This document shows, piece after piece, positions 11,400-50,194 of a stretch of DNA of 54,337 nt. Position numbers and translations under genes: made by a program. Position 1 is the stretch's first letter. The number at the start of each line of letters is the position of its first letter. The stretch lies in contig JBHIAV010000015.1 in the NCBI GenBank assembly GCA_046758745.1, positions 1 through 54,337 on the forward strand. Reading direction: 5' to 3'. The DNA comes from Gemmatimonadota bacterium (GTDB lineage: Bacteria > Gemmatimonadota > Gemmatimonadetes > Palauibacterales > Palauibacteraceae). Below the pieces are notes generated by a model. The model worked only from the letters and a program-made list of their open reading frames with translations, was not told the origin of the DNA and made no database searches.

Positions 11400-12431
<1,032 letters not shown>

Positions 12432-17285: not shown

Positions 17286-17341
17286 CCGCATCGGTCCTCG
17301 ACGCGAGGCGGAGGTCGCTCCGGCCTGCGCGACAGGGCCCG

Positions 17342-18358: not shown

Positions 18359-18657
18359 CCTCCCGCTCGAACGCTCGCCGGGGGCGGGTCCGCCGGCATC
18401 CTGTCCGGCGAGCCGCTGTGGCGACATCGTGCGAAGAGCCGGGGGGTCGCGAGAGCCGTTCGCATACCCCAATATACTCCGTGACGGCCGCGCCCCATCT
18501 TCACCCGGAGAGTTTCCTCGGCGTCCTTTCCCGGTGAAGTCCACGCCCGGATCGCGAAGCGGTGGAGGGTGCTCGGACGCGGCATACGCACCGCGGGGCG
18601 CCACGCGGCCCGGCGACGCTCCCGGGTGCCCTTCTCCCGAGGCCGGGAGGTCCAGCT

Positions 18658-30120: not shown

Positions 30121-31608
30121 GTGCCGGAACCGTTTCCCCAGCTGTGGAGCGTCCTCGGCACGGCCATCACGCTGGTCGTCGCCGCCGGGGCGTCCGCGCA
30201 CGCCATCCTGAACAAGCGGGACAGCCGCGCGGCGGTCGGCTGGGTCGGCCTGATCTGGCTCGTCCCCCTCGTCGGGGCGCTCCTGTACATCCTGTTCGGC
30301 ATCAACCGGGTTCGAAGGCGGGCCATCGGTCGGCGCCCCTTCCACCGCGAGGCTCGACCCGGCGAGGCGACCGCTCGGAGCCGGAGACCGACCGGGAAGG
30401 TCGAGCGGGCGCACCGGGGCGGACTCTCGCCCGCCGGGGCGCCGCGGCGCGAGTCGGGTCTCCGCGAGTCGCTCCGACGGCTCCTGGATGGGATCGCCCG
30501 CCGCCCTCTCACCGACGGAAACGACGTGCGCATGCTGGTGAACGGCGACGAGGCGTACCCGGAGATGATCGCCGCCATCGACGCGGCGGAGCGCACGGTG
30601 GCGCTCGCCACCTACATCTTCGACAACGACGCGGCTGGGCGGCTCTTCCTGGACGCGCTCGCGGGAGCCGTCGGTCGGGGTGTGACGGTCCGCGTACTGC
30701 TGGACGCCGTCGGGGCCCGCTACTCCTGGCCTCCCATCGTGCGAGAGCTGGGTCGCCGCGGTGTCCCCGTGGCGCGCTTCGGGCGCACCCTCCTCCCCTG
30801 GCGCCTGCCCTACCTCAACCTGCGCAACCACCGGAAGCTACTCGTCGTGGACGGGAGGGTCGGGTTCACGGGCGGCCTGAACATCCGGGAGGGATGCATC
30901 CTGAGCTCGGACCCCCGCCACCCGGTGCAGGACCTGCAATGCCGGCTCGAGGGCCCGGTCGTGGCTCACCTGGGCGAGACCTTCGCGGAAGACTGGGCCT
31001 TCACGACGGGCGAGGATCTCGACCCGCACGTGTGGACGGCGGCGCCCGGGGCGGTCGGCACGGTCGCCGCGCGCGGGCTCGCCGACGGACCGGACGAGGA
31101 CTTCGAGGTGGCGCGGCACACGCTCCTCGGCGCGCTGGCGTGCGCCAACTCCTCCGTGAGGGTGATGACCCCCTATTTCCTCCCCGACTCCGGTCTCATC
31201 ACGGCCCTCGGAATCGCTGCCATGCGCGGGGTGGAGGTGGAGATCCTGCTCCCGGAGGCAAACAACCTGGCTCTGGTGCAGTGGGCGGCCACCGCCCAGC
31301 TGTGGCAGGTGCTCGCCACGGGGTGCGAGGTCTTCTACACCCCGCCTCCCTTCGACCATACGAAGCTGCTCGTGGTGGACGGGGAGTGGGTCCTCTTCGG
31401 CTCCTCGAACTGGGACGCTCGAAGCCTGAGGCTGAACTTCGAGTTCGACGTCGAGTGCTACGACGTCGCGCTGGCGGAGCGAGGCGGCGAGTTGATGGAC
31501 CGGAAGCGGGCCGGCGCCCGTCCCGTGACCTTGGAAGAGGTGGACGGGCGGCCGCTCCTCATCCGGCTGCGCGACGGGGTGGCGCGACTGGCGGCTCCGT
31601 ACCTGTAG
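30121..31608 (+). CDS. cls: cardiolipin synthase (PLD family)
   Basis: Two N-terminal TMs; two HKD motifs NHRKLLVVDG and DHTKLLVVDG; GSSNWDARSLRLNFE. Confidence 0.92.
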   Translation: MPEPFPQLWSVLGTAITLVVAAGASAHAILNKRDSRAAVGWVGLIWLVPLVGALLYILFGINRVRRRAIGRRPFHREARPGEATARSRRPTGKVERAHRGGLSPAGAPRRESGLRESLRRLLDGIARRPLTDGNDVRMLVNGDEAYPEMIAAIDAAERTVALATYIFDNDAAGRLFLDALAGAVGRGVTVRVLLDAVGARYSWPPIVRELGRRGVPVARFGRTLLPWRLPYLNLRNHRKLLVVDGRVGFTGGLNIREGCILSSDPRHPVQDLQCRLEGPVVAHLGETFAEDWAFTTGEDLDPHVWTAAPGAVGTVAARGLADGPDEDFEVARHTLLGALACANSSVRVMTPYFLPDSGLITALGIAAMRGVEVEILLPEANNLALVQWAATAQLWQVLATGCEVFYTPPPFDHTKLLVVDGEWVLFGSSNWDARSLRLNFEFDVECYDVALAERGGELMDRKRAGARPVTLEEVDGRPLLIRLRDGVARLAAPYL

Positions 31609-31629
31609 GCGTCGACAAGCACCCGCCGC

Positions 31630-31983
31630 CTACGCCTCGTCGTCCTCCTCTTCCGGGCCGTCGGCGTGGGTGAGGATGCCGCTCACGGCCAGCAGGGCGT
31701 CGGCGACCTGCGTCATGCCGGCCACCGGGAGTGCCATCATCACAGCGTCCAGGATGTGATCGGGCTCCGCTCCGGTGGCCAGCGCCCGAGACGCGTGGCG
31801 CCGCAGAGCTCGCTCCGAGCCCTGCAGGGTGGAGAGGGTGACGAGGATGAGCTGCTTGGTGGCAGGCGGCAGAGAGGTCCCCACGGCGCGCACCAGAGCA
31901 CGGTGCGCCCTGAGCACTTCGGGTCGGAAAGTCTCGATGAGCGCCATGCCGTCCGTGCACCGCGTCTCGCTTTCTTGGGACAT
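31630..31983 (-). CDS. carboxymuconolactone decarboxylase/AhpD-like protein
   Basis: LPPATKQLI...HASRALATGA..DHILDA pattern; GGAGG SD. Confidence 0.78.
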   Translation of the reverse strand: MSQESETRCTDGMALIETFRPEVLRAHRALVRAVGTSLPPATKQLILVTLSTLQGSERALRRHASRALATGAEPDHILDAVMMALPVAGMTQVADALLAVSGILTHADGPEEEDDEA

Positions 31984-32037
31984 CGTTCGTTGCATCCTCC
32001 GACCGGGCGCCGTCCACGGTCCACCCGGTACCTCGCC

Positions 32038-33660
32038 TCAGTACACGCGGATGCCAGGCGCGCCGAAGCGCTCGAGCTGAAGGTGCTGCGCGATGGGGAT
32101 CGCGTACGCCACCGCCAAGAGAATCACTGCCGCCACCACCCAGATCCACAACCGATCCAGAGCGAGGGCGGTGTTGCCCGGCGGCTCCAGGGGATCTGCG
32201 AACTCGATCGGCTCCGGCTCCTGCTTCTTCCCGGCCAGGGCGGTTCCCAACATTACGGCCACGAAACAGAGCGCGCTGGCGTACAGGAAGAGCCCTCCGA
32301 CGGCCGAGATTCCGGTCGCTGCGACCCATTCCTGCGCGGCCGGGCTCCCACCGTACGTGGCCTGGTAAACGCGGCGCGGCATGCCCTGCAGCCCCGTCAG
32401 ATGATTGGAGATCGAGAAGAGGAGCATTCCGCCGAACCACAGGTACGGCTGGATCCTCGCGAGAAGCGTGAGCTCCAGCTCGCGGCGTGTGAGGATCGGC
32501 ATCAGCCAGTAGGCGGCTCCCATGAAGGTGAGGGCGACCGCCGTCCCCACCGTGAGGTGGAAGTGTCCCTGGACCCACGCCGTGTTGTGGACCATGGCGT
32601 TCATCCCGTAGCCCGCGTTGATCGCGCCGCCGAAGCCCCCGACGGCGAAGAGCAACATGGAGAGCGCGACGCTGGAGAAGACCGGGTCTCCCCACGGGAG
32701 CCGCTCGAGCCAGTCGAGCCAGCCGCGGGCCCCCTTCATCCGCCCCGCGATCTCGAACGAGGCCAGCACCGTGAACGCCGTGATCAGGCTGGGGAAGAGG
32801 ATCAGCGACGTGTTCGCGGCGTGAAACAGCTTCCACCCCGCCTTGACGCCCGGGTCGAGGAACTGATGGTGAAACCCGACCGGTCCCGAGAGCACGATGA
32901 ACAGCACGAAGACGAGCCTGGCGAGAGGATCGCTGAACAGCTTTCCGCCCGCCACCCGCGGCGCCACGGTGTACCAGATGACGTAGGCGGGGATCAGCCA
33001 GAAGTAGACGAGCGGGTGCCCGAAATACCAGAAGAGCATGCGGGCGAGGACCGGGTCGATCGTCTCCGAGATCCCCAGCGACCACGGGATGAGGAGGAGG
33101 AGCGCCTCCGCCGCGACGCCCACGGTGGCGAGGAGCCACACGATGATGGTGGCCAGCATGCCGTGAAGCGGCAGCGGGGTACGGGCGCCGGGGTTCTCCC
33201 GTTTCCACGCCAGGTACGTTCGCAGCACCACCCACGACCACCCCCAGGAGCCCACGATGAGGAGGGTGGCCCCGATGTAGAACGCGGGGTGCGCCTTGAG
33301 GGGCGGGTAGAAGGTGTACAGGACCGTCGCCTTCCCCCATAAGACAGCCCAGACAGCCAGCACTGTTCCGAGCAGCGCGACTCCATAGGAGGCCCACGCG
33401 AGCCGAAGGTTGACGAGCGGCCGCTCCAGGGTACGCTCCGCGAAGACATAGCCCAGGCCCATGATGAAGAACGTCGTGAAGACAAGGGCCATCAGGACGC
33501 CGTGCGCCGTGACGGAGAGGTAGTACATCTTGGCGCTGCGCCACGGCAGCTGCAGGTCGGCGCGAGAGAGCGCCTGCATGAGAGCCATGGCCGAGGCCAC
33601 GGCGAACGCGGCGATCGCCACCCAGAAGTTGGCCAGTGCCAGCCTGCGCGCCCGGATCAT
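32038..33660 (-). CDS. cbaA: B-family (ba3-type) heme-copper oxygen reductase subunit I
   Basis: TAHGVLM, LYTFYPPL, WYFGHPLVY (His-Tyr crosslink), GFHHQF.DPG, HNTAWVQGHFH, GMPRR. Confidence 0.95.
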   Translation of the reverse strand: MIRARRLALANFWVAIAAFAVASAMALMQALSRADLQLPWRSAKMYYLSVTAHGVLMALVFTTFFIMGLGYVFAERTLERPLVNLRLAWASYGVALLGTVLAVWAVLWGKATVLYTFYPPLKAHPAFYIGATLLIVGSWGWSWVVLRTYLAWKRENPGARTPLPLHGMLATIIVWLLATVGVAAEALLLLIPWSLGISETIDPVLARMLFWYFGHPLVYFWLIPAYVIWYTVAPRVAGGKLFSDPLARLVFVLFIVLSGPVGFHHQFLDPGVKAGWKLFHAANTSLILFPSLITAFTVLASFEIAGRMKGARGWLDWLERLPWGDPVFSSVALSMLLFAVGGFGGAINAGYGMNAMVHNTAWVQGHFHLTVGTAVALTFMGAAYWLMPILTRRELELTLLARIQPYLWFGGMLLFSISNHLTGLQGMPRRVYQATYGGSPAAQEWVAATGISAVGGLFLYASALCFVAVMLGTALAGKKQEPEPIEFADPLEPPGNTALALDRLWIWVVAAVILLAVAYAIPIAQHLQLERFGAPGIRVY

Positions 33661-34205
33661 CGCGCACCTCCCGCCGCCCCGGGAGCGTCCCCCCCGTCGC
33701 TCGGCCCATCTTCCCCCGCGGCGGAGATAGCCGAACCGTCCTCCACGATCAGCTTCCCGAACATCATGTGGTGGCCGAGCCCGCAGTACTCGTTGCACAC
33801 GATCAGCCGCTCGCCCGGCGAGTCGAAGGTCGTGGTGAACTGGCTCACGTAGCCGGGCACGACCATCGCGTTGCCGTTCGTCTGTACGATCTGGAAGCCG
33901 TGGATGACGTCGGGGCTGGTAAGGCGAAACGTGACCGGGCGGCCGCGCGGCACGCGGATCTCGTTGGGGAGGAAGGCGAACATCTGCGCCAGGACGACCA
34001 CGGTCACGCTCCCGTCTGCGTTCACCGTCACCCCCGGATCCGCGAAGCGGAGGTCGGTTCGCGCCGCGGTCGGATCGATCGTCTCCACGTGACTCGGCGG
34101 CTGGACCGCCATGCCCAGGGTTGTGACGCCGACCGACACTATGAAGACGGCGATGATGCCGACCGCGCCCCACATCCAGAACTTCTCGTACACGTCGACT
34201 CTCAT
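33657..34205 (-). CDS. cbaB: ba3-type oxidase subunit II (CuA)
   Basis: Single TM; DVIHGF...CNEYCGLGHHMM CuA motif. Confidence 0.95.
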   Translation of the reverse strand: MRVDVYEKFWMWGAVGIIAVFIVSVGVTTLGMAVQPPSHVETIDPTAARTDLRFADPGVTVNADGSVTVVVLAQMFAFLPNEIRVPRGRPVTFRLTSPDVIHGFQIVQTNGNAMVVPGYVSQFTTTFDSPGERLIVCNEYCGLGHHMMFGKLIVEDGSAISAAGEDGPSDGGDAPGAAGGAR

Positions 34206-34212
34206 CGCCGCC

Positions 34213-34395
34213 TTACTCCGTCAGAGCGCCGCGCGGAAGGAACACGAAGAAGTAGATGACCAGCCATCCGAGGAGAAAAAGCAGTCCGTAGATGGCGACG
34301 ATCGCCAGCGTTCCCCTCGGATGCCGCTCACTCGGCTCGGGCTCGGCGGCTGCTGCCTCACCGGTCCCGTTCGGCCCCTGCGTCTCACCGGGCAT
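34213..34395 (-). CDS. cbaD: ba3-type oxidase subunit IIa
   Basis: PRGTLAIVAIY...W..IYF..F.PRG single helix, resembling Thermus subunit IIa; immediately upstream of subunit II. Confidence 0.8.
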   Translation of the reverse strand: MPGETQGPNGTGEAAAAEPEPSERHPRGTLAIVAIYGLLFLLGWLVIYFFVFLPRGALTE

Positions 34396-34449
34396 GTCGC
34401 GCCTCCCTTCGGTGTCTGAGCCCCGTCGCGCTCGCAGCACGGCCATTCG

Positions 34450-34496
34450 CGTCGCGCTCAGCGGCACCGCTGCCCCCGTCGCGCTCAGCGGCACCG
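34450..34496. repeat. 20-bp direct repeat (27-bp period) between nosY and cbaD
   Basis: CGTCGCGCTCAGCGGCACCG at 34450 and 34477. Confidence 0.9.
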
Positions 34497-34536
34497 TCTC
34501 CTCCGTCACGCTCCCACCCCGTATCGATCGCCCTCG

Positions 34537-35358
34537 CTACGCCTCCCGCAGTCGGAAGCTACGCGCTCCCGCCGCGAGGGCCAGAACGGACCAGGCCAGA
34601 AGCGACCCCGCCCCCAGCCCGGTCACCCCCCACCGGCCGAAGCGCTCGAGGAGGGCGGCTCCCACGGGCCCGAGAAGCTGGCCCGCGTCGGGATCGAGGA
34701 GGGGTAGCACGGCCATCCGGCAAGCCTCGATCGGGTTCACGAGAGACCAGGCCTGGAGGGTCCACGCGGGAAGCCCCCAGCGCACGAATGCCCCCATGAC
34801 CCCGAGGCTTCCAAGGGCGAGAAAGCCGAGCCAGGCGGTGAGTCCGAGGCTGAGGGCGCGGCTACGGGTCGTACTGCTTGCGGACAGCCACACCCCCAGG
34901 GAAGCGAAAGCCGCCGCCAGGAGGATGGTGAAGGCGAACAATCCCAGCACCAGCTCGCTCCGCACGCCGCGCATGACGGCCACCCCTCCCGTGGCCCCGA
35001 AGCCGACGGTGAGCGAGAGGACGACGGCGGCGACGATCCCGAGCCATTTGCCGAGGTACACCTCGCGTCGGGTCACGGGTTGCGCGAGCAGGTAGTCGAG
35101 GGTGCCGATCTCCCGCTCGCCCGCTACGGCAGCGGCCCCCGGAAAGAGAGCCATGAGGGGGACGACGAACAGCGCCAGGTGCATGAGCCCTGCCAGCGCG
35201 CGGGCGAACCCCCGATACCCGAGCACGGATCCGCCGGCCCCTCCAAGGAGCATGAGCAGCGCGCCCCCGAGCACGAAGACGCCCGAATACACCAAGAACC
35301 AGTAGCTGCGCAGCGAGTCGCGAAGCTCCCGCCGGAGCAGCGGCCAGGCGGCGCTCAC
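34537..35358 (-). CDS. nosY: ABC transporter permease for NosZ maturation
   Basis: RRELRDSLRS, GERE.GTLDYLLAQPVTR.EVYLGK, NPIEACR; overlaps nosF. Confidence 0.9.
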   Translation of the reverse strand: MSAAWPLLRRELRDSLRSYWFLVYSGVFVLGGALLMLLGGAGGSVLGYRGFARALAGLMHLALFVVPLMALFPGAAAVAGEREIGTLDYLLAQPVTRREVYLGKWLGIVAAVVLSLTVGFGATGGVAVMRGVRSELVLGLFAFTILLAAAFASLGVWLSASSTTRSRALSLGLTAWLGFLALGSLGVMGAFVRWGLPAWTLQAWSLVNPIEACRMAVLPLLDPDAGQLLGPVGAALLERFGRWGVTGLGAGSLLAWSVLALAAGARSFRLREA

Positions 35359-36179
35359 CGGGCGCCTCCGGCGCCGTGAGCGAGTGCCACTCGCGGGGGC
35401 GCCGCCAGCCGCGGCCCGAGTCGACCGCGCAGGACCCCCTCCAGGATGTCGCCGAGCAGGAGCGGAGCCTGTCCCGGCGGACCGGGGGGCGCGCCTCCGG
35501 CGCTCCGAAGGGCTCCGGCGCGCCGGATCATCTCGTCCACCCTGCCATCGAAGGCGAGCCGGCCCTCCTCGAGCAGGAGGACGCGATCGGCCAGGGCCTG
35601 CACGTCCTCCACGCGATGCGAGGCGAAGAGGAGCGTGCTCTCGGCGGGCGCCTCCCGAAGGGCCGCCAGGAAGTCGGCCCGCGCGCTCGCATCGAGGCTT
35701 GCTGTCGGCTCGTCGAGCAGGAGGACGGGGACGCCCGCGCCGAGTGACATCGCGAGGAGCGCCTTCTGCAGCATCCCTCCCGAAAGCTCGCGCAGGAGCT
35801 TGCGTCCGGTACGGTCGAGCGGCATCCCGAGCCGCTCGAGAAAGTCCGCCGGTCCCTCCGCCGGCACTCCGCGCAGCCGCGAGAAGAGGTCCACGAACTC
35901 GGTCAGCGTGAGATCGAAGCGCGGGGGCTGCTGGGGCACGTAGCCGATCCTCCCCCGCACCCCTTTCCCCTCGGCGCCGCCGGCCCCGGCCGAGAGCCTG
36001 TCGACGGTGAGCTCGCCCTCGAAGCTCACGAGACCGAGCAGGCAGCGGAGCAGCGTGGTTTTCCCCGCCCCGTTGAGGCCGAGGAGTGCGACCCGCTCCC
36101 CACGCTCTACATGGAAGTCGAGCGCGTCGAGGACGAGCTGGTCGCCGTACCGCTTCGTGACAGCCCGGCCCGTGATCAT
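35355..36179 (-). CDS. nosF: ABC ATPase for NosZ maturation
   Basis: Walker A GLNGAGKT, signature LSGGM, Walker B LLLDEPT; between nosD and nosY. Confidence 0.9.
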   Translation of the reverse strand: MITGRAVTKRYGDQLVLDALDFHVERGERVALLGLNGAGKTTLLRCLLGLVSFEGELTVDRLSAGAGGAEGKGVRGRIGYVPQQPPRFDLTLTEFVDLFSRLRGVPAEGPADFLERLGMPLDRTGRKLLRELSGGMLQKALLAMSLGAGVPVLLLDEPTASLDASARADFLAALREAPAESTLLFASHRVEDVQALADRVLLLEEGRLAFDGRVDEMIRRAGALRSAGGAPPGPPGQAPLLLGDILEGVLRGRLGPRLAAPPRVALAHGAGGAR

Positions 36180-37642
36180 CCCGACGCCCCGCGTGAACCG
36201 GCCCGCGGCGCGCGAGCACGCCGCGCGGCTCCCCACACGCCTCCGGCCGCGAGGAGTCCAAGCCCGGCCCACAGCGCCGCGGCGGTGGCGGGCCGCACCG
36301 GAGCATCGCCGGGCGGAGCGGAGATGGGCGGGGCGGCCTCCCAGCGCTGCCGCTGTCCGAATCCGAGCCGAGGAGCGGAGTCCACGACTATCGGCTGCGG
36401 CCGCAGCAGAGGGAAGAAGCGGCTCAGCACCTCGAGCGCCTCCACCGCCGGGCTGAGCCAGAAGATCTGGAGATCCGGGTGACGGCTCAGCAGCTCGTCC
36501 GCCAGCCGCGCGTACACGAACGGTGTGTCGCCCGTGCCGTCTCCGTCCTCGTCGAAGCCCGCGTACTCGCTCCACGCGTTGCCGCGCCAGTCGTTCCGGA
36601 ACCCCCTGCCGCCACCTCCCCCCCGGATCTCCACGGGGCGGTGGTTGTCGAGGAAGTCGTTCTCAGAGAAGACGTTGCTGTGGACGGAGGGGAGAAGCCG
36701 TGCCCCGACCGAGTTTGCGAAGATCAGGTTCCCCGTGAACCGGTTCGTCACTCCGCGGCTGTGAGGGGAGTTGTCCAGGTAGATCCCGGCACCGTTGCGG
36801 ACGAACACGTTCCCCGCAGCGAGGATCTCGTCCGCGTCCTTCAGCCCGAGACCCATGCCGCCGTAGCGGGCCGTCTCGGCAAACACGTTGTCGCGCAGCT
36901 CGATGTCGGTCGAATACATGATGAACGCGCCCACACGGTTGCCGAGGAATCGATTGCGCTCGAAGCGGTTGTGATCGCTGTACATGTAGTGCAGACCGTA
37001 CCGCCCATCGACGATCAGGTTGTCCCGCACGACGAGGCTGTCGGAGAAGTAGACCACCACGTCCCGCGTGCCGACGACGTCGTTGCTTTCGATGACGCTT
37101 CCGGAGCTGTACCACAGGCGGATCCCGTCCCCGCGCCGCGCGGGCGCGAACGGCTTTCCGACGATGCGGTTCCCCCGGACCAGGGAACCCGGGCCGTTCT
37201 TCACGTACACGCCGTAGAAGACGTCCTCGAACCGGTTTCCTTCCACCCGAACCCGAGCATCCCGCGCCATGAGGCCCGCGTCCTCGGTGTCGACGGTGCT
37301 CCCCGACCCGCGGATGACGAACCCCCGTAGCTCGATCGGCGCGAAGGCCTCCAGCACGTGCCCTCGCCCGCCGCCGTCGATCACCGGCCAGCCGCGACCG
37401 ATGAGGACCAGAGAGGTGCGGAGCTGCAGCCGCTCCGGATAGAGGCCCGATGCGACGACCACGGTGTCGCCGGGGCCCGCGTCGGCCACCGCGTCTCGGA
37501 TCGTCGTGTACTCCCCTTCCGGGCCTACCGTGAGCTGGCGGGCATCGGCTGGAGGGGCCGGCGCGGCGAGGACGAAGACGACCGCCGCCGGGAAGGCCCA
37601 CCGCGCGTAGCGGCTTCCGACGTCCCGACGGTTCCGGCGCAT
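36176..37642 (-). CDS. nosD: periplasmic NosZ maturation protein (beta-helix)
   Basis: RRGDGIRLWYS, RYGLHYMYS, GAFIMYS, GNAWSEYAGFD.DGDG.GD.P. Confidence 0.95.
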   Translation of the reverse strand: MRRNRRDVGSRYARWAFPAAVVFVLAAPAPPADARQLTVGPEGEYTTIRDAVADAGPGDTVVVASGLYPERLQLRTSLVLIGRGWPVIDGGGRGHVLEAFAPIELRGFVIRGSGSTVDTEDAGLMARDARVRVEGNRFEDVFYGVYVKNGPGSLVRGNRIVGKPFAPARRGDGIRLWYSSGSVIESNDVVGTRDVVVYFSDSLVVRDNLIVDGRYGLHYMYSDHNRFERNRFLGNRVGAFIMYSTDIELRDNVFAETARYGGMGLGLKDADEILAAGNVFVRNGAGIYLDNSPHSRGVTNRFTGNLIFANSVGARLLPSVHSNVFSENDFLDNHRPVEIRGGGGGRGFRNDWRGNAWSEYAGFDEDGDGTGDTPFVYARLADELLSRHPDLQIFWLSPAVEALEVLSRFFPLLRPQPIVVDSAPRLGFGQRQRWEAAPPISAPPGDAPVRPATAAALWAGLGLLAAGGVWGAARRARAPRAGSRGASG

Positions 37643-38244
37643 CACGAGGCCCCTCGGCCGCCGAGGCGCCACTCGATGGCGAGGATCAGCGGTCCCATGA
37701 TGCCGGCGAGACCCATCAAGATCGCACCGATGCTCGGCATGCTGGAGACGGTGAACTGCCCGACCTGCGTCGTCCCGATGAACCTCGGCGCGAAGGGGTC
37801 GATGTGGATGGGCGCGTCGGGAGAGAGGTTCATCCCGTACTGAGTGAGCCACCCCTGGAAGTCGAACAGCATCACGGCGCCGAACAGCACGAAGTCGAGG
37901 TAGCCGATCGCGGCGACCGGGATGCGCGCCACGAGGGCGGCGAGCACCGCGAAGCCGAGGAAGCGCAGGATGAAGAAGGGGATGAACTTGAACTCGGGAA
38001 ACTCGTCGGGCCGGATCTCCTTCATCCCGATGTAGTGGTTCAGGATGTTCACCTCGCGGAGGTCGCCCCGCACGGTGTTCGGGTAGATCACGGCCTGCAG
38101 CCCGTCCGGATACTGCGGCGCATGCAGCGTGATCTTCCACACCGGCAGGAAGATGCTCGGCAGCAGGGCGAGGGCGGCGACCACGACGAGGATGCGGCTC
38201 AGCCTGGATATGTCGCCCTGCATGAATGCCGTCAGCCTGTCCAT
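37642..38244 (-). CDS. nosB: clade II nos-cluster membrane protein (NosB-like)
   Basis: PVWKITLHAPQYPDGL and NILNHYIGM motifs; about 4 TM; directly after nosZ. Confidence 0.78.
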   Translation of the reverse strand: MDRLTAFMQGDISRLSRILVVVAALALLPSIFLPVWKITLHAPQYPDGLQAVIYPNTVRGDLREVNILNHYIGMKEIRPDEFPEFKFIPFFILRFLGFAVLAALVARIPVAAIGYLDFVLFGAVMLFDFQGWLTQYGMNLSPDAPIHIDPFAPRFIGTTQVGQFTVSSMPSIGAILMGLAGIMGPLILAIEWRLGGRGAS

Positions 38245-38396
38245 TCCATCTATGCCTTGCGTCCTCGTCGCAGCGGAGCAGCCCGGAGACGGGCCGGCCC
38301 GCGGGACTCAACCTCTGTACGCCGGCCCGCCGCGGCCGGCCGTCAGACGGGCCGGGCGGCACGCCACCATGCGGCCGCCCGGCTTCCGCGCCGCGG

Positions 38397-40361
38397 CTAC
38401 GGTCTCACGAGTAGATAGCCCGCCATCTCTAGGTGCAGCGCGGAGCAAAACTCCGTGCAGTAGAAGGGGAAGACCCCTTCCCTGTCGGCGACGAACCGCA
38501 CCTCCTGCGACTCACCGGGCTCGAGGCTGAGGTTCACGTTGTACTTGTCGATCGCGAACCCATGCGTCGCATCCTTCGCCTGCTCGATGTTGGTGATGTG
38601 GACGACGACGTTGTCGCCCTTCTTCACCTCGATGCGCTCGGGGTTGAAGTGGCTCCGGATCGCGGTCATGTACACGTGCACCTCGTTCCCCCGTCGCTCG
38701 ACGCGCTCGGCGCCGGGCTGCGCCGCGCCCTCGACCCCGGACATCGTGGCGGGGTCGAAGCCGACCTCCGGGTACGTATCCCAAGCCTCGATCTTGTCCG
38801 CCTTGATGATCTGACCGTAGTGCGGCTCCCCGATACCGATCGGCGAGTCGTACAGGAGCTGCATGTTGGGACCCGCGATATCGATGAGCTGGAGGTTCTG
38901 CGGATGCAGGGGACCGACGGACGTGAAACGGTCGAGGGCCCACTTGTTCAGAGAGACCAGGTAGTTCCCATCCGGCGACTTCGTGTCGCCCTCCGCGGCC
39001 GCCACGTGCCCCACGTTGTAATGGATCGAAATCTTTTCGAGGACGCGGCCCTCACTGAGGCTCCACTTCGCGACCGTCGATTCCAGGAAGAGGCTCGTGA
39101 ACGCGATATCGTTGCTGGCGAACTGGGTGTGGAGAGGACCCAGGCCGAGCTCGACCTGCTTCTCCACCGCCGCGTCGAAGTCGATGATCGGCACGCCGTA
39201 GCGGTCGGTGCCGGAGAAGGTCTCGTTCCGGATCGCGTCCTGGATCTTGGCCCACGAATACACCGTGGCATGGGGGTCGAGCTTCCCGGAGACCACCAGC
39301 CGCGTCCCGTCAGGAGTGACGTCCATGCCGTGCGGGCTCTTGGGTTCGGGGATGAAGAAGAGGAGCTCTTCGGCCACCGCGGTCTGGAGGGGAATGACCC
39401 TCTGGCCCCGGATCGTCACCGTCTTCGCCGGCTGCGCCGCCACCTCGGCCGCACGTTGCCAGTTGATGACATGCAGGTAGTCCATGTCGTTGGCCGAGGC
39501 GCCGCCCTCGAAGGGAGGGTTCCCTTCCTCGATGCCACCCGTGGCCAGCTCCGTGTTGAAGGAGTTGATGAACGCCCAGCCGAAGGAGGGTCCCTTGCCG
39601 GCGTCGGCGAGATCCTGCCAGTAGGGCGGGAGCTCGATGGTGAAGCTGCCCGCCTCGTCGATGCGGCCGGCGTCGCGGTCGAACCTGTGGAAGGTGACGG
39701 CGCCCCGGTATCGCTCCGCGTACTCATCGATCCCGGCGTAGCTGCCGTCGAGCGGGGCGGCGTACTGTGCCGGCTCGATCACATACTCGGTGTTCGGCGT
39801 GACGTTGGCTCCGCCATGGTTCGACGCCAGCAACGGGTTGGTGACGATCTGCTTCGTCTCGAAGTCACGCAGATCGATCACCGCGATTCGCGGGTTCGCC
39901 TTGTCGTTGATGAAGAGGTACTCCCCGTCGTACTCCCCGTCCGTCTCCGAGAGCGCGGGGTGGTGCGTGTCGCCCCAGGTGATCGAATGCCCGCTCATCA
40001 TGCCGGACTCGAAGAGCGCCGCGTGCTCCTCCGCCCCGTAGCCGTACCCCTGCCACGGCTCCGGGGTGAAGACGCCGATCACCTTGAGCAGCCGCATGGA
40101 GGGCAGGCCGACGACGAGAACCTGTCCCGAGTGGCCGCCGGAGGCGAAGAGCAGGTAGTCATCTTCCTTCCCGGTGGGCACGTATGTCTTGACCGCCGCC
40201 GCGATGTCAGCCTCGCTCAGGCCGCGGGCCGCCGCGATGTCGCCGAGGTCTGCGCCCGGCCCTCCGGCCCCCGGACCGCCGCATCCAAAGGCGAGTCCGA
40301 CGAGGCCGAGCGCGATCCCCGACACGACGGCGACCGTCCGCGATCCTCTCGTTCTGCTCAT
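38397..40361 (-). CDS. nosZ: Sec-dependent (clade II) nitrous oxide reductase
   Basis: SGGHSGQ; CuZ His motifs DTHH, NHG, PHG, PLHT, VGH, EPH; CuA HGF...CTEFCSALHLEM; lipobox LAFG-C and no twin-Arg motif. Confidence 0.97.
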   Translation of the reverse strand: MSRTRGSRTVAVVSGIALGLVGLAFGCGGPGAGGPGADLGDIAAARGLSEADIAAAVKTYVPTGKEDDYLLFASGGHSGQVLVVGLPSMRLLKVIGVFTPEPWQGYGYGAEEHAALFESGMMSGHSITWGDTHHPALSETDGEYDGEYLFINDKANPRIAVIDLRDFETKQIVTNPLLASNHGGANVTPNTEYVIEPAQYAAPLDGSYAGIDEYAERYRGAVTFHRFDRDAGRIDEAGSFTIELPPYWQDLADAGKGPSFGWAFINSFNTELATGGIEEGNPPFEGGASANDMDYLHVINWQRAAEVAAQPAKTVTIRGQRVIPLQTAVAEELLFFIPEPKSPHGMDVTPDGTRLVVSGKLDPHATVYSWAKIQDAIRNETFSGTDRYGVPIIDFDAAVEKQVELGLGPLHTQFASNDIAFTSLFLESTVAKWSLSEGRVLEKISIHYNVGHVAAAEGDTKSPDGNYLVSLNKWALDRFTSVGPLHPQNLQLIDIAGPNMQLLYDSPIGIGEPHYGQIIKADKIEAWDTYPEVGFDPATMSGVEGAAQPGAERVERRGNEVHVYMTAIRSHFNPERIEVKKGDNVVVHITNIEQAKDATHGFAIDKYNVNLSLEPGESQEVRFVADREGVFPFYCTEFCSALHLEMAGYLLVRP

Positions 40362-40541
40362 CGTTCCCTCTCCTTCTGCCTGGTTCGGCCGGCCCGGTAG
40401 ATGCCATCCGTCCGGGCCCGGGTGTGTTTCGACCCCCCACAGCGGCGCCGGGCTCCCGGCCCGCCACCCGTCCCCATGGTGGCTCGTGCTCCCGGCCACC
40501 CTCACGATCGGGATGGGCTTGTCCTCTCGGCGCTTGTCGCA

Positions 40542-40634
40542 AAGCTAGCCGCGACGCCGGGAAGCGTCTGTCGGGAGGGGGCTGCGTTCCGGTGTAGTCC
40601 GGGAGGGAGAGCAGCCAGTGGGGCTTTTCCCTAC
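40542..40634 (-). promoter_or_regulatory. putative activator-dependent nosZ promoter
   Basis: -35 CAGACG-N17-TAGCTT; upstream imperfect palindrome GTGGGG-N5-CCCTAC at 40618-40634; same layout upstream of usp. Confidence 0.62.
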
Positions 40635-41581
40635 TTCGCGGCTTGCGCGCGCCCATTCCGCCCTTCCCCCGTCCCCTCCCCCACCTCGAGCAGCGACTTC
40701 CCGGTCGCTTTCAAAGTGAGGACGGAGCACGGAGCCTGACGGACGACGCGCTCGGTGACGCTGCCCAGGAGGACGTCCAGGATTCCCGTCAGTCCGTGGC
40801 TCGCGATCACGATCAGATCGGCATCCTTCTCCTTCGCGTACCGGGCGATCTCATGGGCGACCGATCCGACCACCGCTGCCGTCTCCCCCTCGACCGGAGG
40901 GCCCTCGGTGCTCTCGAGCAGCGCCTCGAGCCGCCGGATCGCTTCCTCCCGCAGCTCCTGAGCGCCAAGCGGACGAATCGTCGACGGGAAGTAGAAGTCC
41001 GGGTATACCACCTCGTGCACGACGTGCAGGAGGTCGAGCCGCGCCTTCAGGGCCGAGGCCAGCTCCCGAGCGTGGGAGACGGCGAGCCGCGAGTGTTGCG
41101 AGAAGTCGACGGGAGCGACGATGCGCCGGAAGTCGCCGGACGTCTTCGTCTTCTCGTCCTCCCTTACGGTGAGGACCGGACATCGCGCGAACCGGACCAC
41201 CTCCTCCGCCACGCTGCCCATCACGAAGCGGCGCAGACCGCGCCGGCCGTGCGTACCCATGACGATGAGGTCGATGTGGTGTTCCACCGCGTAGTCGAGG
41301 ATCACGCTCGCGGCGGAGAAGCCGCGCTGCTGAGCGTGGAAGACTCGCACGCCGGAGGTCGTGGCGGCGCCGTCGCCTCCATCGGTCGTGCCGAGGGTCA
41401 CCTCCTCCACCTCGGGGAAGCGGTGCGCCGGATCGGCGGGGTCGGCGGCGTGCAGCGCAAGGGCGTGCAGCATATGCAGCTCCGCTCCGTATCGCTGAGC
41501 GAGCCGCTCCGCGTACGGGAAGGCGTGGTTCGAGCACGCGGAGAAGTCCGTCGGAAACAGGATGCGCGCTATCCTCAACAT
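40631..41581 (-). CDS. universal stress protein (tandem Usp domains)
   Basis: ILFPTDFS...DLIVMGTHGR..MGSVAE.VVR and IVAPVDFS...DLIVIASHG..LGSVTERVVR. Confidence 0.95.
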   Translation of the reverse strand: MLRIARILFPTDFSACSNHAFPYAERLAQRYGAELHMLHALALHAADPADPAHRFPEVEEVTLGTTDGGDGAATTSGVRVFHAQQRGFSAASVILDYAVEHHIDLIVMGTHGRRGLRRFVMGSVAEEVVRFARCPVLTVREDEKTKTSGDFRRIVAPVDFSQHSRLAVSHARELASALKARLDLLHVVHEVVYPDFYFPSTIRPLGAQELREEAIRRLEALLESTEGPPVEGETAAVVGSVAHEIARYAKEKDADLIVIASHGLTGILDVLLGSVTERVVRQAPCSVLTLKATGKSLLEVGEGTGEGRNGRAQAAK

Positions 41582-41616
41582 GGTACGCTCGCTGGTTGGA
41601 GTCTGCCGCTGACTCC

Positions 41617-41707
41617 ATCGTACCGCTCTCGGCGTCCCGCGTCTGTCGGGGGCGTCCGGCGATGTGTAGTGGGGAGAGGCTCGCGACCTTGTGGGAGAAA
41701 CCCCGAC
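41617..41707 (-). promoter_or_regulatory. putative activator-dependent usp promoter
   Basis: -35 CAGACG-N17-TACGAT; imperfect palindrome GTGGGA-N5-CCCGAC at 41691-41707. Confidence 0.62.
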
Positions 41708-41715
41708 CCGGGGGC

Positions 41716-42372
41716 TCAGTCGCTTCGCAGGAGCCCCGTCTTGAGGGCGAAACGAACGAGCTCGGTCCGGTGGTGGAGGCGGAGCTTCTGCATGATCCGC
41801 GAGCGGTAGGTGTCCACCGTCTTCGGTGAGATGAAGAGCCTCTCGCCGATCTCGCTCGAGCTGTACCCCTCCGCGGTGAGGGCGAGGACCTCGCGCTCGC
41901 GGGGACTCAGGCGGTGCAGGGGGCTGGCCTCCGCCCCCGCCTCGCTCTCCTGGTAGCGCCTCAGGAGGAGCTTGGCGGCCGATGGGTAGAGGAACACCTC
42001 CCCGCGGGCGACCTCTCGTATCGCGCGCAGCAGATCGGTGTCCGCCCGTGTCTTCGTCACGTACCCGCTGCCCCCCGCGTCGAGCACCGGGAAGAGGTAC
42101 GTCTCCTCGGCGTGGGCGGTGAGCACCAGCACACGCGCCCCGAGGTCCAGGGCGGCGATGCGTCGGGTGGCCTCCAGCCCTCCCATTCCGGGCATCGACA
42201 GGTCCATGACGACCACGTCGGGCCCCAGCTTGCGGGCCTTGTCCACCGCCTCCTCCCCATCCCCGGCTTCGCCGACCACCTCGAGGTCCGGCTCCGCCTC
42301 GATCAGAGCCGCCAGCCCTGCCCGGAGGACCGCATGGTCATCGGCCAAGAGCACGCGGACCCGCTCAGCCAA
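41716..42372 (-). CDS. NarL/NreC-family response regulator (REC + LuxR HTH)
   Basis: LLADDH, VVMDLSMPG, LSPREREVL...ISPKTVDTYRSRIMQKL. Confidence 0.95.
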   Translation of the reverse strand: MAERVRVLLADDHAVLRAGLAALIEAEPDLEVVGEAGDGEEAVDKARKLGPDVVVMDLSMPGMGGLEATRRIAALDLGARVLVLTAHAEETYLFPVLDAGGSGYVTKTRADTDLLRAIREVARGEVFLYPSAAKLLLRRYQESEAGAEASPLHRLSPREREVLALTAEGYSSSEIGERLFISPKTVDTYRSRIMQKLRLHHRTELVRFALKTGLLRSD

Positions 42373-43477
42373 CCGCGCCTCCCTCCCGCACGGGAATCTC
42401 CGCCCGAATGGTCGTTCCCTCCCCGGGTCGACTGTCGATGATGACGCGGCCGCGCACGTAGCTGGCGCGTTCGGTCATCCCGAACAGGCCGAGCCCGCGC
42501 TCGTCCCGCGTCATCAGCTCGCCGACCGAGAAGCCCGTCCCGTCGTCCTTCACCTCCGCGACGACCAAGTTCCCCTGCCGGCGCAGGCGTACCCATGCGC
42601 GGCTGGCGTAGGCATGACGCACCGTGTTGGAGAGCGCCTCCTGCACGATGCGGTAGAGCACGAGCTGCGCCTCGTCCGTGAGCGCATCGTCCAGAGGATC
42701 GGCCTCGACCTCGATCGCGAGTCCCGCCGTCTCCCGCAGCGAGCGGGCGTGCTCCTGAATGGCGGCCACGATCCCGAGCTCATCGAGGGCCGGCGGCCGG
42801 AGGTCGCGGGCTATCCGCCGCACTCCGTCCGCGGCCTCCGCGATCTCGAGGCGCAGCTCCTCCAGCAGCTCCTGAACCGACAGCACGTCCGGGCCGCGCT
42901 GCGCGACTCGAAGGCGGATGAGGATCGCCGCCAGCGTCTGCAGGGTCTCGTCGTGCAGCTCGCGGGCGACTCGCTTTCGCTCCTCCTCGGTGGCGCGAAG
43001 GGCCTGCGCCCCGAAGGCCCGAACCCGCCGCCGCTCGGTCATGTCCCGCACGGTCGCGATGATCACCAGTCCCCGCTCGGTGAACGCCGGGCTCAGGCTG
43101 ATCTCGACGGGAAACTCGCTTCCGTCGCCGCGCCGTCCGTACAGCTCCAGGCCACTACCCATCGGTCGGCTGCGCGGGCGGGCGGCGAAAGCGCTGCGCT
43201 CCTGCCGGTGCGCCGGGCGGGAGGCCGCCGGGACGAGCAGCTCGACGGCTTTCCCGATGAGATCGGAGCGGGAGTATCCGAAGAGCCGCTCGACCTTAGC
43301 GTTGACGGCCCGGATCTGGCCGTCCTCACCCACCACGACGATGCCGTCCGGCGACGCCTCGAAGAGGACCCGGAGCTCCGTGGCCGTCAGGTCCACCGCT
43401 TCGGTGGCGGTGGCGTCGGAGGCAGCCGGCTCGCGCTCTCTCTGGTCGGATTCCCCTCGGGCAGGAAGATCGGCCAT
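42365..43477 (-). CDS. cytoplasmic PAS-domain histidine kinase (HisKA_3)
   Basis: PAS SPDGIVVV...AH...RPMG...DGSEFPVEISLS; ARELHDE; QEALSNTVRHA; DDGTGF; GLGLFGMTER; no TM. Confidence 0.95.
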   Translation of the reverse strand: MADLPARGESDQREREPAASDATATEAVDLTATELRVLFEASPDGIVVVGEDGQIRAVNAKVERLFGYSRSDLIGKAVELLVPAASRPAHRQERSAFAARPRSRPMGSGLELYGRRGDGSEFPVEISLSPAFTERGLVIIATVRDMTERRRVRAFGAQALRATEEERKRVARELHDETLQTLAAILIRLRVAQRGPDVLSVQELLEELRLEIAEAADGVRRIARDLRPPALDELGIVAAIQEHARSLRETAGLAIEVEADPLDDALTDEAQLVLYRIVQEALSNTVRHAYASRAWVRLRRQGNLVVAEVKDDGTGFSVGELMTRDERGLGLFGMTERASYVRGRVIIDSRPGEGTTIRAEIPVREGGAVG

Positions 43478-43532
43478 CGCGCGCTAAACTGAGGGACGGC
43501 GGCCGGGCGCGACAGCCCCGAGCCGCGCTCGC

Positions 43533-44924
43533 CTACGCGGCCAGGCTGGCGAACAGGTTGTTGAGCGACTCGGCCAGCGTGGGATGGGAGAACACCGCAT
43601 CGCGCAGCGCAGTGTACGGAAGGCCTCCCATCATGGCGAGCTGCACCATCGACATGATCTCGCCTCCCTCGATCCCGACGATCGAGAAGCCCAGGATGCG
43701 TCCGCTGTCCGCCTCCACCACAGCCTTCATGAACCCGCGTGCCTCATCCACCTCCAGCGCCCGCGCCACGTGGCTCATCGGCATCTTCGCCACACGGATG
43801 TCGAGGCCCTGCGCTCTTGCTTCGTCCGCCCGTAGGCCGACGCCGGCCACCTGCGGGTCGATGTACACGGTGTACGGGACGAGCCGACCCACGGTGCTCG
43901 CGTTCCCTCCTTCGAGCAGGTTGGAACGAATGATCCGGTAGTCGTCGTACGAGATGTGCGTGAAGGCGGGCCCGCCGTTCACGTCGCCGAGCGCCCAGAT
44001 CCCGGGCACATTCGTCTCCAGCCGCTCGTTGACCGGGATGAAGCCCATGGCGTCGGTCTGCACCCCCGCCGCTTCCAGCTTCAGGGAGTGCGAGTTCGGG
44101 GTTCGCCCGACCGCCAGCAGGAGGTGCGAGCCCTGGATAGTCCCGCTCTCCTCAGCTGACTCCAGCGAGAGCCGCACGACGCCTTCGCCCCCCTCCACGC
44201 GGACGGCCGTCGTGCCCACCCGCACGTCGATGCCCTCGTCGATCAGGATTGAAGCGACGGCCTCGCTCACATCGGGGTCATCTGTGGGAAGGAGACGCCG
44301 GGCCAGTTCGACGATCGTCACACGCCCCCCGAAACGCCGGAACATCTGGCCGAACTCGAGCCCGACGTATCCGCCACCGAGGACGATGAGGTGCTCGGGG
44401 ACCTCTTCGAGCTCCATGATCGACGTCGAGTCCAGGTAGTCCACATCCTGGAGGCCGGGTATTCCCGGCACGGCGGGGCGGGCGCCCGTGTTGATGAAGA
44501 TCCGCTCGGAGACCAGCGTACGGGATCCGCCATCCCGAAGATCCACATGGAGCTGCCGGGGCCCGATGAAGCTCGCCTCGCCCATGACCAGGTCCAGGGC
44601 CTCGTGTCTCTGCAAGCCACGCGTGGAGCCGGCCCGGAAGCTCTCGACGATGGCCCGCTTCCTCCGGCGCACCATCTTCTGGTCCACCGTCGGGTCGGGT
44701 GCGTGTACGCCGTAGTCGGGGGCGCGCCGGACCAGGTGAGCGACGCGGGCGCTCGCGACCATCGTCTTCGTCGGAGTGCAGCCCACGTTCACGCAGCTCC
44801 CGCCCACGTGTTCCCGCTCGACGATCGCGGTCTTCCAACCGGCGCCGGCGAACGCAGCCGCGAGGGGCTTGCCGCCCTGGCCCGTCCCGATCACGATCGC
44901 GTCATACCGCTCTGCCCGTGTCAT
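43533..44924 (-). CDS. class I pyridine nucleotide-disulfide oxidoreductase (MerA/RclA-like)
   Basis: [35 protein letters not shown]; no HMA domain and no C-terminal Cys-Cys. Confidence 0.9.
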
Positions 44925-45050
44925 CGCCGAGGCTCCTGGTGTGGGCGCATTCCCAGCTCGGGGCGTTCCGTCGAGCCTCGGCGCCCTCCGGCTCGCGAAT
45001 CGGCTCGGGTGGGGCGGCGAGACCGCGCGCTTCGCGCCTCGCGCTACGCT

Positions 45051-46319: not shown

Positions 46320-46577
46320 CGCACCTCACTCCTGCCGCACGGATCTCGGAGAGGACGGCCGGCGAGCGGAGGAGTCCGAACCGTCCTCGCCAAGCGGGCT
46401 CCGAGGTGCGTTCTCCATTTCGTCCGGACCGCCAGCGCCATACCGCGGCCGGCGCTTAGGCAACCACAACATACCGTTCCTCATGCACTTACGCCAGAGC
46501 GGAACGCAGGCTGCCAAGCGGGGCGAGCTCGCTGAAGACGAAGCTCGGTCGCCCCGTCCAGGTACCTCCCGGACCCC

Positions 46578-47309: not shown

Positions 47310-47387
47310 GCGCTCCTCACCAGGGTCGCCGGCCGGTCTCTCGCGGGTCCGGCTCGTGGAGGGCGCCGGTGAAACGCGGCTGCTCCG

Positions 47388-48914: not shown

Positions 48915-48915
48915 C

Positions 48916-49824: not shown

Positions 49825-50194
49825 GCGTCGCTCCCTGTTCTGTTCGCGCCCGGTGGGACTCACGCCACGTACAGCCCGAGCGCCCCGGGCCCTTCGCGGG
49901 CGTCGCGGAGGTGAACTGTATGGATCCCGATGGGGATTCACGGTTTCGAGACGCCGGAAGATCCGGTTCTCCGTGGGCCGCTCCCCGCTCACCATCACGG
50001 CGCCAACCCCTTGCCGCGACGGGCAGTCCGGCGGCCTGCACCCGGCGGCCGTCGGGACGCGACCCCGTGGCGGTACGAGTTCTCGTTGCTCCACCAGGAG
50101 ATCCCGCGCAACATTAGGGACCAGCAACCTCCGAGTTCAAGACGAGTCGGCTCGAGAGGCGGCCCTGACCGAGCATTCCGCCGAGCCCCTGGAC

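Follow-up and report, generated by a model that had tools for sequence, protein, structure and literature searches.

A conserved candidate promoter element precedes usp and nosZ in a Gemmatimonadota locus where clade II nos genes run into a ba3-type oxidase operon

INTRODUCTION

Two described systems stand closest to the regulation proposed here. In rhizobia, FixL-FixJ(-FixK) employs a heme-PAS kinase and a LuxR/GerE-type regulator to govern a high-affinity oxidase together with N-oxide reductases, nos included. In mycobacteria, the DosS/DosT-DosR (DevSR) regulon comprises a HisKA_3 kinase, a NarL-family regulator, tandem Usp targets, and a G-rich palindromic operator. Here, we describe a 54,337-nucleotide (nt) stretch of DNA from a Gemmatimonadota bacterium (GenBank assembly GCA_046758745.1, contig JBHIAV010000015.1; "the window" hereafter) in which a histidine kinase (HK), a response regulator (RR), and a tandem Usp protein head a clade II nitrous oxide (N2O) reductase operon that is followed directly by a ba3-type oxidase operon, and in which a conserved element of ~95 nt precedes both usp and nosZ.

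Members of the Gemmatimonadota are abundant consumers of N2O that do not denitrify. Full-text searches, limited to the main text of openly available papers, gave no account of how nosZ is switched on in these bacteria, of a nos-ba3 operon, or of the present regulator or element in the phylum. The window corresponds to contig C15 in a metagenome-assembled genome (MAG) of 3.08 Mb in 130 contigs, estimated to be 87% complete. An earlier sequence-only reading of it had reported 12 co-oriented minus-strand genes between positions 31630 and 43477, in the order HK, RR, usp, nosZ, nosB, nosD, nosF, nosY, cbaD, cbaB, cbaA, and CMD, and open reading frame calls, Pfam, and NCBIfam agree with it on identities and coordinates. 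In our view, the main value of the locus lies in the candidate nos regulator pair and the conserved ~95-nt predicted promoter/operator, and not in the nos-ba3 junction itself.

RESULTS

A conserved element precedes usp and nosZ

Four features recur in the same order in the RR-usp and usp-nosZ spacers: a G/C-rich palindrome, a C-rich box with the sequence TCTCCC(G/C)AC, the 12-mer CCCGACAGACGC, and a TAnnnT-type hexamer 16 nt further on. The whole element spans ~95 nt and combines a G/C-rich palindrome of 18 bp with two additional C-rich boxes that resemble half-sites and, at fixed spacing, a −10-like hexamer; in relatives, the palindrome takes the form GTGGGGA-N3-5-TCCCCAC. The copy 5′ of usp (E1; 41616 to 41708, minus strand) has its palindrome at 41691 to 41704, its C-rich box at 41669 to 41678, its 12-mer at 41639 to 41650, and the −10-like hexamer TACGAT near 41617 to 41622. 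The copy 5′ of nosZ (E2; 40537 to 40634, minus strand) has its palindrome at 40618 to 40631, its 12-mer at 40564 to 40575, and the −10-like hexamer TAGCTT near 40541 to 40546, and a leader of about 170 nt lies between it and the nosZ ATG. The 12-mer occurs twice in the 3.08-Mb genome, once in E1 and once in E2, and with at most one mismatch it is also found between genes in related nos and cba islands.

Pairwise local alignments among four window spacers gave none clearly above shuffled sequences, and the element was established by an nhmmer profile built from 14 sites, all of them from other genomes. When the 3.08-Mb genome was searched with this profile, E1 was the best match (E = 9e-10) and E2 the fourth (E = 3.6e-4). 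Over 117 related loci, the profile gave 27 matches at an E value of ≤0.01, 13 of which lie outside the profile-building set. The element sits before nosZ, or before a cytochrome c gene (cyc) that precedes nosZ, in L006, L008, L012, L013, L014, L015, L016, L018, and G014; it sits before CMD-usp in all four loci of the type seen in a sister genus, g6, and elsewhere also before usp and before a divergent second kinase. Element-bearing loci include L113, L115, L134, L148, and L186. The gene after the element was never cbaD (0 of the 27 matches over the 117 loci).

In 2.4-kb stretches upstream of nosZ, the element was found in 7/10 cases in the window's family and in 0/10 in a second family; of the seven stretches with a match, three hold a profile-building site and four do not. 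An HK or RR homologue was present in the fetched flanks of 7/9 nos loci with the element versus 0/7 without it, a comparison in which three of the latter loci have short flanks and the related genomes are not independent samples. The element is most likely a promoter/operator for the neighboring regulator, through which usp and nosZ would be turned on as O2 falls. A wider regulon was considered from other matches in the genome, before an Nfu-like gene (C6), a diheme cytochrome c cluster (C36), a kinase with a sigma-54 activator (C12), and unknown genes (C28), and was rejected because these matches are too weak.

The kinase, the regulator, and Usp form a recurring frame

The HK gene (42365 to 43477, minus strand) encodes a cytoplasmic sensor histidine kinase with PAS, HisKA_3, and HATPase_c domains (Pfam and NCBIfam) and no membrane anchor. 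The best solved relatives of its PAS domain are the heme-PAS domains of FixL and DosP, and a His aligns without gaps with the FixL heme-pocket His, which makes HK a FixL/DosP-like candidate heme-PAS gas or redox sensor. The RR gene (41716 to 42372, minus strand), whose start overlaps the HK stop, encodes a NarL/LuxR-family response regulator with Response_reg and GerE domains (Pfam). Its nearest solved structures are VraR, NarL, and DevR, and it shares 76 to 78% identity with the RR encoded just before cbaD in genus g6. The tandem usp gene (40631 to 41581, minus strand) encodes two Usp domains (Pfam Usp, 219 bits in two stretches); its Protein Data Bank (PDB) matches include tandem-Usp and Rv2623-type entries, and DevR/DevS fragments are among the PDB matches of HK and RR.

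HK homologues adjoin nos and/or cba in relatives. HK-RR lies 5′ of nosZ or cyc-nosZ in L013, L016, L018, and G014, and Usp lies 3′ of nosY in L013 and L015; in genus g6, HK-RR precedes cbaDBA and Usp comes after it. By gene content, HK-RR together with Usp is a recurring frame, which in the window encloses both the nos and the cba operon. The sequence-only reading had proposed that a PAS kinase, a regulator, and Usp head an O2/N2O switch. A frame resembling an O2 sensor does exist, with its FixL/DosP-like PAS domain and aligned His, but other residues of the pocket differ; heme binding and switching are possible by analogy.

The nosY-cbaD junction is real and carries no recognizable promoter

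A 141-nt spacer (34396 to 34536) separates nosY from cbaD, matching the earlier estimate of ~140 nt. The junction is real and not an assembly artifact. Per-run contigs of four DNA runs (four samples, one study) cross it with zero differences, word depth is even over 13 kb in the two deepest runs, and G+C is uniform. The samples behind the bridging runs are labeled hydrothermal vent metagenome, and two of the four may be the window's source; the runs listed for the junction included none of RNA.

A promoter scan detected no sigma-70-like promoter in the spacer or anywhere across 31400 to 43800, and the element profile had no match in the spacer even at an E value of 10. A scan for intrinsic terminators over the same 12.4 kb also found none, the spacer included, where shuffled sequences give 3.6; a missing terminator in the spacer is therefore uninformative, as the scan is without power in this G+C-rich DNA. 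The earlier remark that no U-tract terminator separates the two operons is thus correct as an observation but carries no weight. Between 34441 and 34495, the spacer holds a 27-nt tandem repeat, with two exact 19-nt copies 27 nt apart (34450 to 34468 and 34477 to 34495) and a degenerate third. Both exact genome copies of the 19-nt repeat sit in the spacer, and a dispersed element was rejected because no exact copy exists elsewhere in the genome. The fold of the spacer RNA is ordinary (z = 0.19).

Relatives differ at this position. In the second family, cbaD comes after an Rrf2 gene and a sigma-70 promoter that matches the consensus at 10 to 11 of 12 positions, and the promoter is detected by the same scan; this arrangement suggests a different control (Fe-S, NO, or redox) of the same oxidase. 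The Rrf2-family regulator directly upstream of cbaD in L114, L120, L124-L126, and L128-L130 has three C-terminal cysteines. In genus g6, the spacer between RR and cbaD is merely 36 to 131 nt long and lacks the element.

Direct nosY-cbaD adjacency is a lineage-specific arrangement

Gene order was compared from both sides of the junction. Of the NosZ loci taken from species-representative genomes, 78 in number, 61 include nosY, 56 of these with at least 1 kb of further sequence, and nosY is directly followed by cbaD in 0/56; one locus has a 23%-identical subunit I gene 2.4 kb upstream of nosZ. A census of 100 loci upstream of cbaD, from which 30 were dropped (too short or no cbaD match), gave 0/70 with nosY adjoining. 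The upstream neighbor in these 70 loci is a HAMP kinase (21), a NarL-type RR (10), a globin-like gene (9), Rrf2 (8), or a CBS protein (7), with four pairs and seven singletons making up the rest, and these classes are approximate because genes beyond the 12, in related loci and on other contigs, were called by a GC3-based heuristic that overlooked nosF in the window. In nine metagenome contigs (L149, L153, L166, L168, L177, L178, L182, L185, and L223), a globin-like gene lies 4 to 44 nt upstream of cbaD. CbaA orthologues (65 to 82% identity) are present in 20/40 related genomes, none with nos directly upstream, and nosY adjoins cbaD in 0 of 80 metagenome contigs with a 66 to 82% identical CbaA. 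In the 12 relatives with both NosZ and ba3, the two lie either on separate contigs or no less than 70 kb from each other, though contigs of two of the 12, G005 and G021, are collinear.

These two genomes point to a looser linkage in sister genus g6, where the order is cyc-nosZBDFY, about 4.3 kb, and then HK-RR-cbaDBA-CMD-Usp, all co-oriented. Contig C30 of G005 carries cyc-nosZBDFY-cyc2-(GCS2/CBS protein)-(GNAT/cyclic nucleotide-binding protein)-HK-RR and then ends; contigs C37 and C127 of G021 are collinear with it, and C127 goes on as HK-RR-cbaD-B-A-CMD-Usp. No exact overlaps were found between the ends of the G005 and G021 contigs, and the linkage is drawn from collinearity and from the single metagenome contig L186, which holds nosD-F-Y, about 4.2 kb, and HK-RR-cbaDBA-CMD-Usp on one piece. 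The first ~200 nt of contig C134 of G005 are not a continuation of the RR receiver domain. Metagenome contig L148 carries HK-RR-cbaDBA, and nosDFY-like genes lie 5 to 7 kb upstream of cbaD in L183 and L197, which are more distant. In G014, a B-family operon of 42% identity lies about 11 kb from nosZ and is separated from it by unrelated genes.

We conclude from these comparisons that the direct junction arose by rearrangement of an island within one lineage and is not a conserved module; the sister genus also links the parts of this island (nos, HK-RR, cba, CMD, and Usp), but in a different order. For the sequence-only reading, which had looked to synteny of nosY with cbaDBA across genomes, the finding of the adjacency in this genome alone, of all those searched, comes close to a refutation.

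A low-oxygen respiratory island is the favored explanation

The reading that we favor, with a probability of about 0.55, is that the window carries a low-oxygen respiratory island whose ba3 operon is at least partly read through from the nosZ promoter. HK would sense O2 or a related signal via its FixL/DosP-like PAS domain, the NarL-type RR would bind the element before usp and nosZ, and falling O2 would induce usp and nosZBDFY. Transcription would continue over the 141-nt spacer into cbaDBA-CMD and end near the convergent phospholipase D gene at 31608, and NosZ and a presumed high-affinity O2 reductase would thus be made together at the oxic-anoxic transition. Because cbaD has neither the element nor the sigma-70 promoter of other relatives, partial read-through is the most likely route to ba3 expression. 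Taken as a claim of its own, read-through from nosY into cbaD is about evenly balanced in our judgment, and induction of both the nos and the cba operon at low O2 is rather likely.

Several findings weigh against this explanation. The regulator is linked to the element by proximity, and pairwise local alignment of the two window spacers scored 27 against 19.2 ± 2.9 for shuffles (maximum, 33), which is not significant by itself. Two positions that presumably correspond to pocket arginines of FixL are not conserved in the HK PAS alignment. Co-transcription was deduced from the absence of recognizable promoters in 141 nt, where an unrecognized promoter could sit and where the 27-nt tandem repeat, unique in the genome, may act as an operator. 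Most relatives have other upstream neighbors of cbaD, and control of cbaDBA is therefore not generally tied to nos. NosZ and ba3 are also unassociated in the 40 relatives, NosZ being present in 12/20 genomes with a ba3 orthologue and in 12/20 without one, and direct nosY-cbaD adjacency occurs in no other genome or contig searched.

A coincidental juxtaposition is the strongest competitor, and we regard it as possible but clearly less probable. Here, two self-sufficient units would stand head to tail, cbaDBA-CMD would have its own unrecognized promoter in the spacer, and there would be no functional coupling beyond the fact that both are respiratory. The confinement of the adjacency to this genome and the independent distribution of ba3 and NosZ are what this explanation leads one to expect, as is the 141-nt gap between two blocks, nosB-D-F-Y and cbaD-B-A, that are tightly overlapping inside. 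The unique repeat would then be a possible regulator site, and co-orientation says little in a run of 17 genes that includes housekeeping functions. The explanation is harder to reconcile with a spacer in which no sigma-70-like site is found by the same scan that detects the relatives' promoters, with the linkage and co-orientation of nos and cba in the sister genus too, and with the single regulator-Usp frame that holds both operons.

The nos operon is a minimal clade II set with no recognizable electron-donor or copper-chaperone genes in the cluster

NosZ (gene at 38397 to 40361, minus strand; 654 amino acids) scores 852 bits against the Sec-type model TIGR04246 (cut-off, 625), the clade II type, and 395 bits against the TAT-type model TIGR04244, under the cut-off of 625. 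Domain-level Pfam matches are to nos_propeller and cupredoxin. Read from the translation, its N terminus has a short basic start, a hydrophobic core, and a lipobox-like ...FGC, as in a lipoprotein-like signal peptide, with no RR-x-F twin-arginine motif. Its nearest relatives are in Gemmatimonadota MAG loci, at 65 to 77% identity. In one related locus (G014:C35, L134 at about 15200 to 17313), the nosZ match is split into two parts in separate frames or ORFs, the result of either a frameshift or a misassembly.

The next gene (37642 to 38244, minus strand) encodes a membrane protein with no Pfam or NCBIfam match, and its identity as a nosB-like protein comes from homologues in clade II loci; these, 28 to 75% identical, adjoin other nos genes in most such loci and lie nearly always between nosZ and nosD, Campylobacter included. 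The remaining genes, all on the minus strand, are nosD (36176 to 37642; TIGR04247, 360 bits; cut-off, 300), nosF (35355 to 36179; ABC ATPase, ABC_tran), and nosY (34537 to 35358; ABC-2 permease, ABC2_membrane_2). The nosF start overlaps the nosD stop and the nosY start overlaps the nosF stop; the positions of both genes are conserved, and the nosD-nosF-nosY order after nosZ is that of 61/78 NosZ loci. No nosGH-, nosC-, or nosR-type domains occur in the Pfam annotation of the window. Judged by its genes, the window's nos operon is the minimal clade II set nosZ-B-D-F-Y, without nosL, a nos-linked cytochrome c, or nosGH.

A monoheme cytochrome c gene lies directly 5′ of nosZ in 14/15 Gemmatimonadota-type loci and in 19/20 upstream stretches from relatives. 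When the window was searched with the relatives' protein, no match better than an E value of 0.096 was obtained, and the closest matches in the genome are paralogues, 29 to 35% identical. Since the cluster has lost this gene, NosZ would have to draw on a donor encoded elsewhere, possibly shared with ba3. A diheme cytochrome c gene (G000:C36:28182-28826, minus strand) lies downstream of the third-best genome match to the element profile (C36:29955-30022; E = 3.4e-5) and is a weak candidate for a trans-encoded electron donor. As to copper, neither NosL (PF05573) nor the Sco and PCuAC chaperone families were found in this 87%-complete genome. NosL was found in 1/41 related genomes although 25/41 have NosZ, and its absence is thus a lineage trait.

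These observations bear on the proposal of the sequence-only reading, a dedicated microoxic N2O-sink unit in which ba3 is co-expressed to scavenge O2 and protect NosZ and in which copper maturation and cytochrome c donors are shared. The arrangement and the regulatory frame are compatible with it, as they are with the island reading favored above. The lost nos-linked cytochrome c may have left NosZ on the same donor as ba3, and a Gemmatimonadota survey makes the general suggestion that terminal oxidases may protect O2-sensitive enzymes (PMC9426454). Sharing of copper maturation and electron donors has no gene-level support, as no cytochrome c gene lies in the window and no chaperone genes were found (NosL in 1/41 genomes; no Sco or PCuAC here). 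The gene order is not conserved, no co-occurrence signal was seen, and the genome's cytochrome bd could scavenge O2 as well. We consider such a unit unlikely, and the narrower claim that ba3 is present here specifically to shield NosZ from O2 improbable to a similar degree.

The oxidase is ba3-type and the genome lacks recognizable nitrite and NO reductases

The earlier assignment of cbaDBA to the B family is confirmed. The best PDB match of CbaA (gene at 32038 to 33660, minus strand) is subunit I of Thermus thermophilus ba3, at 409 bits, and non-ba3-type subunit I chains among the matches listed score at most 68 bits. The two subunit I sequences align over their full length, and the HP-x-VYFW stretch, the cross-link Tyr (helix VI), and the CuB/heme His ligands are identical; on the ccoN model, CbaA scores 39 bits against a cut-off of 583. 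CbaB (33657 to 34205, minus strand) is a CuA cupredoxin subunit II with one N-terminal helix and no cytochrome c domain, and its best PDB match is T. thermophilus ba3 subunit II (130 bits). CbaD (34213 to 34395, minus strand), subunit IIa, matches PF08113 CoxIIa at 23.2 bits (cut-off, 20.7), and a Shine-Dalgarno sequence, GGGAGG, lies 7 nt before its ATG. On these matches, cbaDBA is a complete B-family (ba3-type) cytochrome c oxidase operon. It is followed by a gene for a CMD-family protein with an AhpD-like fold (31630 to 31995, minus strand; PF02627) and without a CxxC motif; homologues of 56 to 57% identity come after cbaA in L113, L115, and L186, which are of the genus g6 type.

The genome also has cytochrome bd and three further heme-copper oxidase subunit I genes, whose scores against the general COX1 model are much higher. 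The sequence-only reading had called for a survey of nir and nor: none of nirK, nirS, and ccoN exceeds its cut-off in the 87%-complete genome, and there is no NorB-like match among its four heme-copper subunit I genes. Within the limits of that completeness, the organism seems to reduce N2O without denitrifying and to have several oxidases.

A further alternative is that the ba3-like enzyme acts mainly as a nitric oxide (NO) reductase that feeds N2O to NosZ, in a two-step NO-to-N2 unit. An NO-reductase side activity of the Thermus ba3 is known, the genome's four subunit I genes include no NorB-like match that would fill this role, and an Rrf2-type regulator lies 5′ of cbaD in eight relatives. 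The full-length match of subunit I to Thermus ba3, with the HP-x-VYFW stretch, cross-link Tyr, and His ligands kept, the presence of both a CuA subunit II and a subunit IIa, and the lack of a nirK or nirS over cut-off as an NO source make this alternative very improbable. Least probable of all, a chimera in which the assembler joined the nos and cba blocks, as a 130-contig MAG and a short tandem repeat in the spacer might lead one to suspect, is essentially refuted by the independent contigs of four runs that span the junction without differences, together with the even depth over 13 kb and uniform G+C.

Flanking genes

The minus-strand run continues upstream through five housekeeping genes (43533 to 49863): a flavoprotein disulfide reductase, a thiolase, and three pentose-phosphate genes. 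Co-orientation alone therefore gives little information on operon membership, since the same strand continues over 17 genes. Downstream of CMD, the cluster is bounded by the convergent phospholipase D gene that starts at 31608. Elsewhere in the window, a 1,064-amino-acid protein of unusual architecture (3679 to 6873, plus strand) joins a membrane part resembling ATP/ADP transporters and MFS proteins to HEAT repeats and, at the C terminus, a cyclic-nucleotide-binding domain; an MsrP/MsrQ-like pair (10634 to 12431, minus strand) consists of a molybdopterin oxidoreductase and a ferric-reductase-like membrane protein; and two adenosine deaminase paralogues (17342 to 18427, minus strand, and 18658 to 19662, plus strand) are adjacent and divergent.

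DISCUSSION

The low-oxygen island that we favor fits physiology reported for other N2O reducers. In Gemmatimonas aurantiaca T-27, nosZ is expressed under O2, and N2O is reduced more slowly with O2, which acts as a non-competitive inhibitor with a Ki of about 7.9 μM (PMC10100939). In N2O-respiring Methylacidiphilum, ba3 genes are reported in a preprint to be up 6- to 30-fold (bioRxiv 10.1101/2024.01.15.574570). By analogy, both accounts agree with a role of the present locus at the oxic-anoxic transition.

A bolder interpretation, which we put forward tentatively and consider doubtful, is that one Gemmatimonadota family has placed N2O reduction under a DosR-like regulon for hypoxic survival and not under a denitrification regulon. 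A heme-PAS kinase and a NarL-type RR would act on a tripartite operator/promoter, made up of the palindrome and two half-site boxes, to drive nosZ and usp; in the present genome, ba3 would have been captured into the nos unit and the nos cytochrome c lost, and both enzymes would come from one transcript and draw on one cytochrome c pool. If true, the locus would be a hard-wired O2/N2O co-respiration unit for the oxic-anoxic boundary. Should the regulatory reading of the element hold, its sequence would be a marker predicting when environmental Gemmatimonadota act as N2O sinks, and this genome, with a presumed high-affinity oxidase behind the nosZ promoter, would be a natural experiment.

Comparison with known systems places each part of the locus. 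With the clade II nos clusters of Gemmatimonadota, for which G. aurantiaca T-27 is the cultured reference, the window shares the nosZBDFY order, a Sec-type NosZ, and the general lack of a detectable nosL in the lineage, and this genome appears to be non-denitrifying; it differs in having no preceding cytochrome c gene and in the Usp gene and element upstream and the ba3 operon downstream, neither of which was seen as a neighbor in the other loci. In Wolinella and Campylobacter (nosZ-B-D-G-C1-C2-H-F-Y-L), nosB also directly follows nosZ, and nosD, nosF, and nosY come in the same order. There, about 2.6 kb lies between nosD and nosF in the Campylobacter loci, presumably the place of nosG, C1, C2, and H, whereas the window has no gene at that position, no C-terminal cytochrome c domain on NosZ, and no nosL. 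The ba3 operon of T. thermophilus (PDB 1EHK and 1XME) has the same three subunits in the same order, cbaD-cbaB-cbaA; in the window, the operon comes after nos and is followed by the CMD gene, and the likeness is one of genes.

For the regulator, both systems named at the outset offer partial precedents. Like FixLJ, the window pairs a FixL-like PAS kinase with a GerE-type RR beside an oxidase and nos. Unlike FixLJ, its HK has HisKA_3 and no membrane anchor, the oxidase is of the B family and not cbb3, there is neither a FixK/FNR-type intermediate nor an FNR-like box, and the predicted operator is a G/C-rich palindrome. The DosRS system resembles it in the HisKA_3 kinase, the NarL-family RR, the tandem Usp, and the palindrome-containing element before usp, the predicted operator being alike in type only; here, the sensor domain is PAS and not GAF, and the candidate targets include the respiratory gene nosZ. 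The parts of the locus thus belong to known families (clade II nos, ba3, NarL-type two-component systems, and Usp), and the ~95-nt element before nosZ and usp is new.

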